A stretch of DNA of 64,000 nucleotides from a virus (taxonomy: Duplodnaviria; Heunggongvirae; Uroviricota; Caudoviricetes), in IMG/VR virus record IMGVR_UViG_3300021431_000083, one strand, 5' to 3'. Made by a program: the position numbers and the translations under genes. This document shows positions 16,797 to 36,001 of this stretch, in pieces. Numbering within the stretch: the first letter of the stretch is position 1; every line of letters begins with the position of its first letter. The notes beneath the pieces are model-generated. The model ran no database searches. It was given only the letters and a program-made list of their open reading frames with translations, and had not been told where the DNA came from.

Positions 16797-17100
16797 GAAA
16801 ATATCGCGGGTGGCGCCTTTACGCACTTTATCAGGACTCGCAACCTGCCGCTGGAAAACCCGCTTCTTTTGGTTCACCGGAGAAGCTCTTTGCCTATGAT
16901 TACAAACCGGTTTATAATATTCTCGGAGGGTCTACCATTTACACCCTAACTCGCTTACCGAGTTCGCATGAGCTTCAGCATTCAATTAGATCTGTCACCA
17001 TCTTTATGGCGCTTTCTTTATACCACTTATCATGTGGCTGCGGTGACTAGTACGCATTTAGGAAAAGAAAGCATAAGAAAACCCTCCTACTCAGTAATTA

Positions 17101-17175
17101 TATAGTCTGGAGTCGAACCAGTGTCTCTCTGGGCATAACCATAAGCGCTCTACCGTTAAGCTATCTCTATAACAC
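17101..17175 (-). ncRNA. tRNA-like element (D-arm GCTTAACGGTAGAGC, T-loop TTCGACT). No canonical acceptor or anticodon pairing found by hand.
   Basis: Partial cloverleaf only. May be a pseudo-tRNA, a split tRNA, or part of a larger structured RNA. Confidence 0.3.
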
Positions 17176-17400
17176 CTTTCGTTCGCTACTTACCCCGTCG
17201 GACTTTCGCTACACACCTAGGTTTTATTAATGTGTCTGCAGGTGTATTAGACACTCCAGCAGCTTTTTACGTCTTCACTTTATTTGGACAGCTACCTTCC
17301 GCAGTAGTATGGCGACATGACTTTCGTTGAAGAGGACTGCCGCAAGCGAACATTATACACCAATGATTTTTATCTTCCTGGTTCCATCACCCTTCACAGA

Positions 17401-17470
17401 CAGCCAGATTGGACTCGAACCAATACCCTAGCCCTTGCGGGCCGATGCTGACCAATTACACCACCAGCTA
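17401..17470 (-). ncRNA. tRNA-like element: acceptor with G-U pairs, T-arm ATTGG-TTCGAGT-CCAAT, but a GCCC-GCAA-GGGC GNRA hairpin where the anticodon arm should be
   Basis: 70 nt. Not a standard tRNA. Confidence 0.3.
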
Positions 17471-17871
17471 TCTCCAGTTTACTTTCACCTGTGCTATGAA
17501 TGTTTTTAGAGCGCCATTATTTCTATAGCGGAGGCCAGTGGTACAAACATCATAACCATATCTTCCCGCTTGATAGTTTAGTTTGAAAGGACTATCAACC
17601 TTATGTGAGAATGGAAAACCCATCTCTTTCGCACTTCGTTTTAGAAAACGAATAATTAAACATTCTTACCTTCGACTTAGGTTTACTCGGTACGTGCCTT
17701 CTCGTTGTATCCCGACCAATTCCTGTGGTAGCTACTCCACACTCACGTTTTTCGCTATGGGTACCTCTTCCCCACCCGCGTCTAGGCCGTCTCTCTGAGC
17801 AGTTTCTGCAGTCATACTCTCAGTTGATATTGGCGAGAATGTTTAACTTTCCCTTTTCTTTATATATATAT

Positions 17872-17912
17872 TATAACATATTTTTTATTCAGTTGTCAAG
17901 TTTTATTTTAAG
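17872..17912 (-). promoter_or_regulatory. consensus promoter module (approximate). It points into the noncoding island and tRNA-Ser.
   Basis: atatattataacatattttttattcagttgtcaa. Confidence 0.45.
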
Positions 17913-17992
17913 GCTTGGTTATTTTTCCCTTTAAACTAACCGCCCTTCTACAGGACAGTGACTGATTCGAACAATCATCTCCCTTACCTTAT

Positions 17993-18030
17993 ATATATAT
18001 TATAGCATAAAAATTGAACAATCGTCAACA
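17993..18030 (-). promoter_or_regulatory. consensus promoter module (approximate), in tandem with the previous one
   Basis: atatattatagcataaaaattgaacaatcgtcaa. Confidence 0.45.
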
Positions 18031-18113
18031 AATATTTTTAAACAAGTCTTGCCGCGCTTAAACGATCAGCCCACAAGAGGACCGAGCCTGAGTCGAACAG
18101 GCATTTGTTTATA

Positions 18114-23502: not shown

Positions 23503-23575
23503 GGTCGCTATGGAAGGTAACGCTCCTCCGTCTTGGCGTTATCAGCACCCTGCTCTACTTTTGAGCTACATAGCG
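23503..23575 (-). tRNA. tRNA-Ile(GAU)
   Basis: Acceptor CGCTATG/CATAGCG. D-arm GCTC-AAAAGTA-GAGC. Anticodon loop CTGATAA. Unusual T-loop AGCGTTA. Confidence 0.5.
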
Positions 23576-24329: not shown

Positions 24330-25619
24330 AAAATAAAAGCGTTGGGTAAGGTGTAACGCGACCACCGCATGTAAAATTATTTTATGTCTAATCGACATGC
24401 TCGCAAAGACAGTAGGATTGCTCCTTTTGGAAGATATATCTATTATGGCTGATATGACTTTAAATATATATAAATATATCCTCCAAAAGAAGATACTTTC
24501 ATAGGAACCACCCTCATCGTAGAGAAAGTATAAACTACAGAAGGTTCTAACGCTCTTAACCTACAAGCGATCTTTACTTTACGCATAGACTTGCGGCAAG
24601 ATCATTACCCTATCCTGCATGGGATGTACTTGATTTCGTTCAAACACATAAAGACGGAAATCATTTTGGTTCAGGTGATTTCAAAACCAGAAAACCACAA
24701 TTTTATTTTATAGTCTAATTGGTTCATACTAGACTGGCATTAAGTACGCCTAAGAAAACATTTTATAAATGTTCTCTAAGGCATAAACTGTTTATCAGTT
24801 ATTTCAGCCCTTTAAGCTACACTAGAGAGTATGTTAGGCTACTCTCTTTTTATATACCCTGCCTAACCAGAGACGCCGTTTTATTTAATGACGCGAACGG
24901 ACTAGGAACTTGGTAATCACCTTACGGTATCCGCCATTTTCCATACCACTTAATTTCTTAAGGGCTATTACGTCAATTCCTTCAAACAGAATAGTTGAAG
25001 ATATACATGCCAGCCTTCGCTGTACCGCATCTATTTACTGGATATTCGATCACGCAGGAGATAAGGCTGAGTATGTCGGAGCGACCGTCATACTTCTTAC
25101 CCCAGCCGTTAAGGCCATCTCTACTGTAGGAGTGATTACCTACAACTTTCACACGTCATTCAGCATTAATATATTCTCCTAAATATTCATTGATATAAGG
25201 AGCTGCTTTGTGCTACTCGAACCTTGCTCTTGTCTTATTCTTTCTGTTACCAGAAAGTCAACAGCTCAATCTCCTTATTGGTATTTCCAGCTTTCTCTTA
25301 TTCAGCACCACCTGTTAATAAGTGTTCTGGATTCTTCCCCACTGGGGCGTCTATTGCGGAGACGACAATTTGCAAGTATCTTTCCTTAGCAAATAGACTA
25401 AGCGCATTCTTCATTTTGTTGGTAGTTCCTACCTTCTAAAGCAAACCTCACGATTCACCTTAAAGCCACACAGCCAAGTATCCCAGACTGTATAAACTCA
25501 TTGAGAAGAACCCTCAGCACGTTGACACCGCTCTGCACTGAGTTGCACCTAAATCTTCAACTATTCTGTTTTCAAAGTTCTTAGGTTAAGAAACCTAATA
25601 TTAACTCTCTCAACCTTAT

Positions 25620-25662: not shown

Positions 25663-25797
25663 TTTTAAACTAGTTTTTTAGTAATTTTATTCACGTGTTA
25701 TTACATTGAACTACTAGCAAACCGTTTTTAGCACGAGGACCACTCCGTGTTTTTTAGATGGTGTACGTCTTCCCTGGCCTGTTCCCATCATATCTTA

Positions 25798-25842
25798 TAT
25801 ATATATTATATCATATTTATAAAACCATTGTCAATAAAAATT
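25798..25842 (-). promoter_or_regulatory. consensus promoter module, 2 of 3 in tandem
   Basis: atatattatatcatatttataaaaccattgtcaa. Confidence 0.45.
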
Positions 25843-25925
25843 TTTAACAGCTGAAAGATTTTAAATCTTTCTTATTTTATATAAAAACTGAAAAACTTTT
25901 TTTATCCCCTTTTGATAAATATATT

Positions 25926-33148: not shown

Positions 33149-33583
33149 CTAAAAAATCCTTTCAGATGCAAAACCATCATTTGTTGAATAAAGAATATTT
33201 CGTATACCCTTATCTCGCAAAGCTTTCATACAACCAGCACAAGGTCTTGCCAATCCCATGTGTAGTTTCTTACCATTACAAATGCGGAAAATATATACCT
33301 TAACCTTACTCCAATCAATAGATTCTTGTATGGGATAAGGTATAGATTTCAATGCTGCAATTTCCGCATGAACACTATGTTTTATAGGTTGCTTGCTGCA
33401 CTTATTAAATTTACGTTCTTTATTATATTTTTTTTGAAGTGGATCTGTCTTATCAGAATTAGCACCACGGCCAATAATACGACCTTTATAAACAATAATG
33501 CATCCAAGATGAAAACGTGCAAAATCACTGTGCAATGCTTCTTGACGAGCCAATTCAAAAAACCTATAATCTTTCTTATTCAT
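33149..33583 (-). CDS. dCMP/cytidine deaminase family zinc-dependent deaminase
   Basis: HAE ... PCAGC zinc-binding signature. Confidence 0.6.
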   Translation of the reverse strand: MNKKDYRFFELARQEALHSDFARFHLGCIIVYKGRIIGRGANSDKTDPLQKKYNKERKFNKCSKQPIKHSVHAEIAALKSIPYPIQESIDWSKVKVYIFRICNGKKLHMGLARPCAGCMKALRDKGIRNILYSTNDGFASERIF

Positions 33584-33605
33584 AGTTCCCTTTCTCTCTA
33601 TAAAT

Positions 33606-33642
33606 ATATTATATCATAGATTAATTGTGGCCGTCTAGTAAT
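33606..33642 (-). promoter_or_regulatory. consensus promoter module (TAGACG, spacer, TATGAT)
   Basis: aatatattatatcatagattaattgtggccgtcta. Confidence 0.4.
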
Positions 33643-33686
33643 TTTTCAAGGCAATAAAAAAATAGGGTTTATATAGATTATAAACC

Positions 33687-34256
33687 CTATAGTGTTGTAA
33701 TAATTGCATCGTCTAAAATAACCTTAGTTACTTTTGAATCGGTTTCTATTGTTTGATTATTTGTTGCAGAAAATTTCCATAATTGTTCTACATTTAGTCC
33801 ATCACACCTTGCAAAAGCATCACCAATTTTATTGCCATCTTTATCTAATAATGAAAAATTTAATTCTATACTTGTAAAGTGCTTATCAGATATATTTTTT
33901 AAAGTGCCGTCTATATTGTATATTTTACCATTTTCTTGCGGCTTAGAATTAAAATTAATTTCATAAACATCATTATCTTCATTACCTAAAGCATATAAAA
34001 CAGCTCTTGCACCATGCTCTGACATTGCACTAGAACTATGAAGTATATGAACTCTATTTACTTGATGCGGCAACATATTTGCAAACAAGTCTTGATAATT
34101 ATAAGTATTTCCAACGAATAAACCAAGAGCAAAACAGAGTAAAACGATTCCAATACACTGGGCGGTTATTTTACGCCCTCTCTTCTTTTTATCTTTATCC
34201 ATTCTTTCTCTCCTAACTTCTTTTGTAACGAATAGTATAGTTCTATCTCGCTCCAA
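33687..34256 (-). CDS. hypothetical membrane-anchored protein (189 aa)
   Basis: Basic N-terminus followed by a TM helix. Confidence 0.45.
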   Translation of the reverse strand: MERDRTILFVTKEVRRERMDKDKKKRGRKITAQCIGIVLLCFALGLFVGNTYNYQDLFANMLPHQVNRVHILHSSSAMSEHGARAVLYALGNEDNDVYEINFNSKPQENGKIYNIDGTLKNISDKHFTSIELNFSLLDKDGNKIGDAFARCDGLNVEQLWKFSATNNQTIETDSKVTKVILDDAIITTL

Positions 34257-34805
34257 GAGAAGTGATAAGTGTTATATCGTGTACTTATCAAAACACGTCC
34301 GCATTATTTCTACTAACTTAGCCCTTGCGGCAAGACTCGGTTACATTCTCAGCAACTTAGTTTAGGCCATTCCGCCAGACAAGACACTTTTATGTTTATA
34401 ACATAAGCAGGATTTGAACCTGCCCCTCCTAAACATTGCGGCATTCAATCCACTTTTACCTTGTATTCATGCCCCGCAAGGTTCGGTTTCGGGGACTTCC
34501 CCTGTTTGATATCCTTTTCAGATATGCGGAGGACCATAGGCATATACATCAACCTTAAAGCAGCTCAGTCACGCATGATGATGTTCATCAGGAAGGGATT
34601 CCAACCCTTGTGTTGGGTTTCTCACCACCAACTATAGTATATGTCCGGAGCCCAAGACTTTCGTCCCACGTGAGGCCGTCCTTATCACGTGTTGCCGCAC
34701 AAAGCGACCATTTCTGAGAACGCAATGCCACACGTTCTCGCATCTCTTTCTTCTCTTGGAAGATGAGTAAAAATAAAGTATCTTTATTTTCTATTAATAG
34801 TATAA

Positions 34806-34842
34806 TATAAATAAAGGCGGTTGTCAATAAAATTTTTAACAG
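34806..34842 (-). promoter_or_regulatory. consensus promoter module pointing into the 34.3-34.8 kb noncoding island
   Basis: tataatataaataaaggcggttgtcaa. Confidence 0.4.
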
Positions 34843-34855
34843 CCGCCTTGTTGTT

Positions 34856-35266
34856 CTAAAGTTTTTCTACAACTGCTGGGAAGTTGTTAATAACACAACT
34901 ACCGCTAATTGTTGTTGTTAAAACGCTGTCACAGTCACATCCGCAATTACGGACTAGTGCTTTAATTGGAAGAGCTATTGGAGTATTAAGTGCACCAGTA
35001 AGAGTAATAGAAGCTCCACGAACAGGTTTACCATCTTGGAAAAGTCTAGCTGTAATTGGGCCTGCGGCAGTAGGTGTAACAACCAATGTTTGATCTACAT
35101 CAAAATATCCAGCACCACAACATTGAATTGAACCACCTTGTGATTGAACGCATTGACCAAATCGACGAACGATTGAGCCATAAGGTACTTGTACAGGAAC
35201 ATTATTAGTAACTGTAACACTGGTACCAGTATCATTTACAGTATAAATTGCGGATTTACAAGTCAT
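34856..35266 (-). CDS. Cys-rich small protein (136 aa)
   Basis: Intact under the standard code. Motifs CCGAGY, NCGCDCDS. Confidence 0.45.
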   Translation of the reverse strand: MTCKSAIYTVNDTGTSVTVTNNVPVQVPYGSIVRRFGQCVQSQGGSIQCCGAGYFDVDQTLVVTPTAAGPITARLFQDGKPVRGASITLTGALNTPIALPIKALVRNCGCDCDSVLTTTISGSCVINNFPAVVEKL

Positions 35267-35338
35267 TTTTGTAACTTCCTTCCTTGTCTAAACTGACATA
35301 TAGGGGTAATGCTTTACATTACCCCTAAAACTATTTAA

Positions 35339-36001
35339 TTAAATATTGCCGCAGCAACCGCCATAATTGCCACAACCGCAGAAGGGATTATTGCCTGCAT
35401 TATATGCGAACATATTTGGATAACGAACAACTCCCTGCATAGCTTGGTCTAATTGTAGCTGATTAATCTGATTTTGCATATCGGCCATACGATTACCAGT
35501 AATCTGATCAGATACTCCTTGAATCTTATCACCAATTTTCTGAACTGCATCATTAACTTGCATAGCAACGTTATAATTGACACCGTCAATCGCGCGTTGG
35601 ACGCTGCAGCAGCATTCATTTTCTTTTGCAAGAAGATTTGCTTGACCAACCGCAAGACCAGCAATATCACGTTGTAGTTCCTGATATTTATCACTTAACG
35701 CACTAATAGTATCATGGAATACTTGGTTTGTAGTCTGTATGCCTTGCATTGTACCAGCATTTACAGCCGCAAGAATTTCACGCTGATTCGCCATGCTGTT
35801 TTGATTATCGAAACCACGCTGTACTTCGTTAGAAGTTGCTAGATTTTCATAACCAATAGCATTAGCAAAACCATTGTTACCAAAGCCATTATTGCCCCAG
35901 CCAAAGATTAAAGCAAAAAGAACAATGACTCACCAGCAACCACCACCCCAATCATTATCATGATTAAGAGCAGCAATATCACTTAATGTCATATCAGCCA
36001 T
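35339..36001 (-). CDS. Gly/Cys-rich protein ending CGCGNYGGCCGNI, 220 aa, needs code 4 (one TGA)
   Basis: Hand translation MADMTLSDIAALNHDNDWGGGCW(TGA)VIVLFALIFGW... joins the track ORF 35339..35794. Confidence 0.45.

Follow-up and report, generated by a model that had tools for sequence, protein, structure and literature searches.

A probable new family of large structured noncoding RNA, with an optional tRNA-like module, in TGA-recoded ruminant-gut phages

A stretch of about 530 nt without open reading frames, running from about 34792 to 34262 on the minus strand of DNA from a Caudoviricetes phage (IMG/VR record IMGVR_UViG_3300021431_000083), raises the question of what, if anything, it encodes. 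The window analysed here is the whole 64,000-nt stretch, part of a 140,682-base phage record; positions are those of the window unless given as genome positions. An earlier note, written from the letters of this DNA alone, proposed a split or intron-containing tRNA or a small RNA at this site, and named it as a candidate location for the missing tRNA that decodes UGA. The GC content of the island (0.45–0.49) exceeds that of its surroundings (about 0.30–0.36), and since the neighbouring genes all lie on the minus strand, the island is read on that strand.

Along this strand, the unit consists of a terminator/promoter module, the RNA of about 530 nt and the next gene. The gene upstream (34856-35266, minus strand) encodes a 136-aa cysteine-rich protein, P0001, and ends in a terminator-type hairpin whose loop contains, in its 3' part, the -35 hexamer of the promoter of the RNA (Table 1). 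The terminator stem covaries across relatives, and TTGAC is unchanged. The promoter module that had been suspected at about 34806-34842 is borne out by a sigma-70-like site matching at 11 of 12 positions; at the equivalent position in relatives, the match reaches 12/12 (L016, L025). Transcription of the RNA would start at about 34793-34791. The downstream gene (protein P0002) has its ATG at 34202, preceded by a good ribosome-binding site. No strong intrinsic terminator lies 3' of the RNA in the window; the hairpin with a C/U-rich tail found there is a weak one, so that some read-through into the next gene is possible. In the relative L016, a 12/12 promoter precedes the RNA, and behind the RNA come an intrinsic terminator (11-bp stem and T-run) and then a new 11/12 promoter. 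This arrangement, together with the identity of the downstream gene, which varies among relatives, speaks against a dedicated leader. P0001 has 51 homologues in gut metagenomes, of near-constant length (mostly 131–138 aa, a few up to 176), and the RNA gene, where present, always directly follows the P0001 gene. No Pfam domain was found in P0001 or P0002; PF18573 is recorded for three distant P0001 homologues. No relatives of P0002 were found among viral contigs.

Relatives of the island were sought in two ways, via the upstream Cys-rich protein and via DNA pattern scans. Twelve further loci have the island at the equivalent site, directly after the Cys-rich gene, which gives a family of 13 loci with about seven distinct sequence types; the family is narrow, and the covariation described below is therefore drawn from few independent lineages. 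The runs that hold the stretch are all labelled gut metagenome, and the named hosts are sheep, cattle or goat. Five loci with relatives of the Cys-rich gene (L010, L011, L012, L018 and L023) have neither such a gap nor the RNA. The RNA core is 77–97% identical among relatives, compared with 67–87% for the DNA and 59–86% for the protein of the adjacent gene; in L013, the core is 96% identical and the protein 60%. A covariance model of the core matches all 13 loci, once per genome, with 162–225 bits, and finds nothing in ten other loci hit by the patterns. BLAST of the island and the surrounding 10 kb against 50,697 GenBank phage records gave no match. The pattern scan of viral contigs returned three known relatives and otherwise chance hits only, that of metagenomes three near-duplicates, and that of genome contigs a single chance hit in a Rikenellaceae MAG, which the model scores at 9 bits; these scans showed no copy of the RNA in a host or prophage. 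So far, all known members of the family come from a small clade of large ruminant-gut phages with recoded TGA.

Table 1. Features of the RNA gene and its promoter region, listed from 5' to 3' on the minus strand.
Feature	Position	Strand	Basis or remark
Terminator-type hairpin of the Cys-rich gene, AAGGCGG ... CCGCCUU	34814-34849	-	read from sequence
Sigma-70-type promoter, TTGACA + 17-nt spacer + TATACT, 11/12	34799-34827	-	scored match
Promoter hexamer TTGACA	34827-34822	-	
Promoter hexamer TATACT	34804-34799	-	
H0, 5' A/U hairpin AAAAUAAAG-AUA-CUUUAUUUU	34770-34790	-	optional
H1 and H2	34716-34767	-	H1 34767-34744, H2 34738-34716; both covary
Conserved 188-nt core domain	34525-34712	-	RNAalifold and model-fitted alignment
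H3	34708-34694	-	
H4	34691-34667	-	conserved loop UAAGGA..GCC
H5	34665-34656	-	variable hairpin
Closing helix of the core	34653-34649 with 34535-34531	-	
Second core helix	34643-34637 with 34547-34541	-	7 modelled pairs; relatives have up to 8
H7	34632-34612	-	loop UGGUGAGAAAC; in enclosed junction
H8	34609-34593	-	in enclosed junction
H9	34590-34576	-	in enclosed junction
Linker domain, variant A (contains invariant CCGC)	34458-34529	-	compensatory changes by eye
Linker A hairpin AUAUC-UGAAAAG-GAUAU	34525-34509	-	
Linker A hairpin GGGG-AAGU-CCCC	34503-34492	-	kept in every homologue
Linker A hairpin ACCUUG...CAAGGU	34482-34458	-	loop includes CGGGG
tRNA-like module, 96 nt	34361-34456	-	optional; present in 8 loci
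D-arm-like hairpin GUGG-8 nt-CCGC	34453-34438	-	
Canonical T-arm GCAGG-UUCAAAU-CCUGC	34423-34407	-	
Closed 7-bp 'acceptor-like' hairpin UUAUGUU-AUA-AACAUAA	34406-34390	-	adjoins T-arm without spacer
Small hairpin GGC-GGAAUG-GCC	34376-34365	-	in module
3' hairpin domain, UGCUGA/UUAGUA helix and inner hairpin	34305-34360	-	
Hairpin GUCUU-GCCGCA-AGGGC	34336-34321	-	in 3' hairpin domain
Invariant single strand GUAGAAAUA	34313-34305	-	
3'-terminal domain	34262-34297	-	
3'-terminal hairpin GAUAAGU-(12-nt loop ACACGAUAUAAC)-ACUUAUC	34289-34264	-	stem covaries

The comparison of relatives supports a conserved fold. For 11 core sequences, RNAalifold predicts 46 pairs, 22 of which show compensatory double changes. 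In the alignment of the core fitted to the covariance model, 99.4% of cells are in standard pairs against 87.3% in shuffles, and 23 of the 46 pairs have changed on both sides against a shuffle mean of 12.9, a count reached by none of 500 shuffles; both figures come from an alignment fitted to the model itself. When the partners were slid by 1–3 columns as a control, at most five core pairs had changed on both sides. Upstream of the core, the changes in H1 and H2 turn UCUUC/GAAGA into UCUAC/GUAGA and GAGAACG/CGUUCUC into GAGAUUG/CAAUCUC; L024 lacks both hairpins, and H0 was not seen in L013, L017, L024 and L025. Three single-stranded segments of the core, GUGACUGA, AAGGUUGAUG and UAUGG, are invariant, and insertions occur in H3 (L024) and in H5 (L017, L022, L024, L025). 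L025, the most divergent relative, has about 100–130 extra bases between its 12/12 promoter and H1 (L025:2945-3045), with a possible 35-codon ORF (MFKKRMPRK...) and a second -10-like TATAAT. The GC-richness of the island, its conservation in 12 other loci and the strong covariation put it far beyond chance.

Several longer-range contacts were considered for this fold and rejected. The invariant UAUGG would suit a GAAA tetraloop with its 11-nt receptor, but the strand facing it does not read CCUAAG, and relatives do not retain the GAAA loop. By eye, a helix that would close the RNA by pairing its 5' end with GUAGAAAUA, the invariant single strand of the 3' hairpin domain, fits some sequences and fails in others, and the same holds for a kissing interaction of the H2 loop (UGCGGCA) with the loop GCCGCA. 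The pentamers TGCGG/CCGCA occur five times within about 400 nt (34294-34700, minus strand), in H3, the linker, the module, the loop of the 3' hairpin and the tail. UGCGGCA and UGCCGCA are mutually complementary; no consistent long-range pairing was found between the copies.

The 3' half of the RNA, about 280 nt, is built from modular, swappable parts. The linker is present as variant A in the window and as a variant B, of different sequence and similar layout, in L005, L003, L013, L016 and L024. The compensatory changes seen by eye convert AUAUC/GAUAU into AUAAC/GUUAU, and CCUUG/CAAGG into CUCUG/CAGAG or GGGUCUG/CAGACCC. Within this domain, the earlier note had drawn a hairpin from CCCCG and CGGGG. 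Both strings exist (34495-34491 and 34476-34472), but covariation favours the ACCUUG/CAAGGU stem and GGGG-AAGU-CCCC is universally kept, so that, judged by eye, they could pair at most as an alternative or in a pseudoknot. In the 3' hairpin domain, GUCUU/AGGGC is replaced (again by eye) by GUCCU/AGGGC, AUCCU/AGGGU or CGAUCC/GGGUCG, and some relatives have an optional extra hairpin before the tail. The terminal stem GAUAAGU/ACUUAUC becomes AAUAGGU/ACCUAUU or GACAGGU/ACCUGUC. An invariant CGUG (34297-34294), four bases upstream of the terminal hairpin, is complementary to CACG (34281-34278) in the loop of the terminal hairpin; these two invariant tetramers, neither of which varies, suggest an H-type pseudoknot that would serve as the 3' end or as a weak terminator.

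The part of the RNA that resembles a tRNA lies in this modular half. The module is present in eight loci and missing from L003, L004, L021, L017 and L025, which keep the rest of the RNA. Its T-arm, reported earlier at about 34402-34420, is real, with the position corrected as in Table 1: it has a 5-bp stem, a 7-nt loop that conforms to UUCRANY and a G-C closing pair (G53-C61), and it is invariant among the family's own sequences, that is, the eight loci with the module. The adjoining 7-bp stem is far more variable, with versions UUAUGUU/AACAUAA, UUAUGCU/AGCAUAA, UUCGUAC/GUACGAA and CUGUGC/GUACAG; six of its seven pairs have changed on both sides, a count that takes in one weak, unrelated row. 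The loop that closes this stem has 3–4 nt in most relatives and 11 nt in L022. Taken together, T-arm and 7-bp helix are the acceptor/T 'top half' of a tRNA with a closed acceptor end. The invariant CCGC of the module can pair with the upstream GUGG, giving the D-arm-like hairpin, or with a downstream GCGG, and the single changes fit both. The module model has no other match in the genome. The sequence GGTTCAAATCC occurs twice in the 140-kb genome, its second copy within a real tRNA. Since five relatives do without the module, it cannot account for what the core does.

The island has no credible ORF under table 11, only short overlapping ones. If TGA is read as tryptophan (table 4), a 118-aa ORF with four TGA codons appears at 34313-34669 on the minus strand; it is not open in the relatives, in each of which the longest frame differs in frame and length, and the longest open frame on the RNA strand of L003 has at most 55 codons (TGA = Trp). 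The insertions in relatives sit at hairpin tips. The earlier statement that there is no ORF here thus stands, in that none is conserved in relatives under table 4 or 11. Because the 118-codon ORF is not conserved, gene callers set to code 4 could mis-annotate the RNA as a protein on such phages. Contig annotation already calls a 163-aa ORF on the strand opposite the RNA (L025:2998-3489).

Six RNA-seq libraries contain part of the stretch, and four of them, from three studies, were mapped on 33500-35500. RNA-library contigs cover 34301-34757, including contigs that start and end within the island: one of 414 nt (34328-34741), one of 432 nt (34325-34757) and a set of 260 + 198 nt. H0 and the final hairpin (34262-34300) are without RNA contigs. 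Neither of the two source-sample libraries has any contig on the flanks 33500-34300 and 34773-35440; the other two show sparse short pieces on the flanks, including 34998-35226 and 35089-35267 on the Cys-rich gene. Metatranscriptome contigs show neither strand, exact ends nor abundance, yet carry-over of DNA would not centre so strongly on the island, and the pattern argues for an abundant or stable RNA from it. The proposed check for a transcript and a structure therefore came out positive on both counts, with contigs that cover the island and a structure that covaries. Of the suggestion of a small RNA, the structured RNA remains, backed by covariation and by the RNA contigs, and the smallness does not, the unit being about 530 nt long. 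Further upstream, the stretch 35443-35500 is also covered in all four runs, by contigs most of which continue into unrelated sequence; it is an expressed late gene or else a conserved motif that other organisms share.

A scan of the window with the 4227 families of Rfam gave no match on the island at the gathering threshold. Relaxing the limit to E up to 10 gave only hits at chance level there, to models of unrelated sRNAs and snoRNAs, and neither GOLLD nor ROOL matched. The family is thus uncatalogued in Rfam; fragments of it may stand unnamed in a large catalogue of phage structured-RNA candidates (10,006 csRNA; PMC10690425). The window also has, at 16797-18110, another ORF-free island, which shows no similarity to the new RNA by BLAST or with either covariance model; on this comparison the two RNAs are independent families.

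Among the known classes, ROOL offers the closest setting. A full-length ROOL (RF03087) lies in the window at 24991-25566, 9 kb downstream of the new RNA, and ROOL is found 8–9 kb downstream of it in two IMG/VR relatives (L037, L038) as well, so that the two RNA genes travel together. The terminator/promoter module recurs ahead of ROOL (25791-25851 compared with 34797-34843, both minus strand; 77% identity over 59 nt), each time as an A/T tract, TTGACA within a hairpin and then TATAAT or TATACT, and has the look of a cassette for repeated use that would 'stop late, start strong'. Like the new RNA, ROOL is about 0.5 kb long, ornate and multi-junctional, and is found in rumen or gut phages, with its own strong promoter in a tRNA-rich phage. 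ROOL is also abundant. The new RNA differs from ROOL in that it shares no sequence or covariance-model similarity with it, has another helix layout and is not adjacent to the tRNA array. With ROOL and GOLLD alike, it has in common that it is phage-encoded and large, with a covariation-supported structure and no coding capacity. ROOL and GOLLD form RNA-only nanocages and are often near tRNA islands, and GOLLD linkers sometimes hold tRNAs (10.1101/2024.12.08.627333). GOLLD has one conserved and one variable, modular part; so does the new RNA, with the tRNA-like module in its variable 3' half. In contrast to GOLLD, the new RNA has its conserved part in the 5' half, embeds a closed tRNA mimic instead of a real tRNA and is much smaller, at about 530 nt, than many GOLLD RNAs (over 800 nt).

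The order of elements in the module recalls the YrlA-type Y RNAs of bacteria and phages, in which the T-arm is followed by an acceptor stem-loop and then the D-arm; in the Mycobacterium smegmatis member, it is the 7-bp acceptor stem that makes the RNA an RNase P substrate (PMC4201824). The YrlA tRNA-like domain and the module share a topology, a T-arm and then a closed acceptor-like stem-loop within a larger RNA. Unlike in YrlA, the partner of the D-arm is uncertain and the module makes up only a fifth of a much larger RNA. The YrlA model has no match on the island, and no match to Ro60/TROVE (PF05731) was found in the 140-kb phage record, in a search to which control genomes respond. A Ro60-binding motif was considered, as GACGAAAG in H5 fits GNCGAA(N)G, and dismissed, since that hairpin is replaced in relatives.

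That the island is a stand-alone, expressed gene for a structured noncoding RNA of a new family we regard as very probable. The canonical T-arm and the 7-bp stem beside it could be those of a tRNA that is split, permuted or interrupted by an intron, and that might be the UGA decoder. ARAGORN, however, finds no tRNA in 34257-34855, and the Rfam tRNA model (RF00005) gives nothing on the island, whether at the gathering threshold or with E up to 10. Neither an open acceptor stem with a 3' end for CCA nor an anticodon arm can be drawn at the module, the closed 7-bp stem leaving no room for CCA ends, and five relatives keep the RNA without it. Run on the whole record, ARAGORN places a UCA-anticodon tRNA at genome 18170-18266, about 30 kb ahead of the start of the window; a 'missing UGA reader' thus needs no gene at the island, and the tRNA reading as a whole is scarcely credible. 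ARAGORN lists 13 tRNAs in the window, none at the island, and Rfam, at the gathering threshold, 14. One Rfam match (23505-23575, minus strand; 48.6 bits) is absent from the ARAGORN list, and the tRNA island accordingly has at least one gene beyond the ARAGORN count. A ribozyme, either a reduced RNase P-like RNA or a self-cleaving one, is suggested by GACGAAAGUCUUGGGCUCC, which we take to resemble conserved region I of bacterial RNase P RNA, and by the downstream GAGAAACCCAAC, which could mimic the other P4 strand. It is nevertheless very unlikely: GAC-GAAA-GUC is a variable hairpin, replaced by unrelated ones in L017, L022, L024 and L025, CCAAC pairs by covariation with GUUGG in H7 and not with UUGGG, and even with E up to 10 no model of RNase P gives a match. 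Covariation rules out the RNase P-like reading of GAAAGUC..GGGCUCC. The location at a boundary between gene blocks and the five TGCGG/CCGCA pentamers would also suit an element that acts as DNA, such as an origin or a packaging site, or a decaying remnant with no RNA function. Set against this are compensatory changes that maintain RNA pairs, including G-U, island-specific RNA contigs, conservation above that of the neighbouring gene and a cumulative GC skew that makes no turn at the island, and we consider such an element highly improbable.

Two further explanations, the main rivals, accept the RNA and differ in what it would do. As a cis-acting leader of the early operon, it would remain bound to its own polymerase, or respond to a signal, and so govern read-through into the early genes downstream, by processive antitermination, as do the put RNAs of phage HK022, or as a large riboswitch-like leader. 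The strong promoter that opens the early block would transcribe the RNA first; nothing but a weak hairpin parts it from the next gene in the window, and the terminator directly 3' of it in L016 is one that an antitermination RNA could override. A leader is nonetheless unlikely, because the downstream gene is not constant among relatives, as an association with one gene family would demand, the terminator of L016 is followed by a separate 11/12 promoter, the source-sample libraries have RNA contigs on the island and none on the downstream gene, and a modular, swappable 3' half of about 280 nt does not look like an expression platform. Known antitermination RNAs are, besides, far smaller than about 530 nt. 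The other explanation is an RNA-only particle, a symmetric multimer (cage or ring) that would assemble by itself and have the tRNA-like module as cargo or decoration. It draws on the ROOL-like setting, with the same kind of phage and promoter module, on the large, ornate RNA with its invariant loops, and on the nanocages of ROOL and GOLLD, including the tRNAs at times found in GOLLD linkers (10.1101/2024.12.08.627333). The new RNA has, however, no sequence or model similarity to either class, no conserved self-complementary loop was found and the palindrome CUAUAG in the junction is lost in L025; such a particle seems unlikely, and it would be a special case of an RNA that acts in trans as a scaffold.

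As an explanation of the whole, we therefore favour, as probable, a self-contained minus-strand gene for a stable, structured noncoding RNA of about 530 nt, of a family outside Rfam. Under this explanation, the host RNA polymerase would start at the near-consensus sigma-70 promoter, which is merged with the terminator that ends the last late gene; the RNA is in this way the first product of the standard-code (early) block. The transcript would fold into the strictly conserved 188-nt core, with its long closing stem around a multi-helix junction with invariant loops and single strands, followed by the modular 3' half and the conserved 3' tail. By analogy with phage ROOL and GOLLD, for which the same is assumed, the folded RNA might then serve as a scaffold or decoy in trans, a role that we put forward tentatively, as one possibility. 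The module, where present, would display a tRNA 'top half' to proteins that recognise such a shape; candidate readers are RNase P, T-loop modifying enzymes and tRNA-directed defence nucleases.

For the question from which this analysis started, the matter is closed: the UGA reader is not at the island. Large, elaborately folded RNAs without an assigned function are rare, and ROOL and GOLLD are the two known phage classes; a further, unrelated class would matter because it shares its phages and its type of promoter with them, has clear support from covariation and metatranscriptomes, and occurs in natural variants with and without the tRNA-shaped module. These variants offer a comparison for the role of tRNA-like parts, and the 188-nt core is a compact new object for structural work. 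More speculatively still, the RNA could represent a class of large ornate phage RNA independent of ROOL and GOLLD, the third of its kind, and belong to a toolkit that tRNA-rich, code-switching phages might deploy at the start of infection, in which the core would self-assemble or bind a host machine and the tRNA-mimic module would divert tRNA enzymes or tRNA-directed defences.
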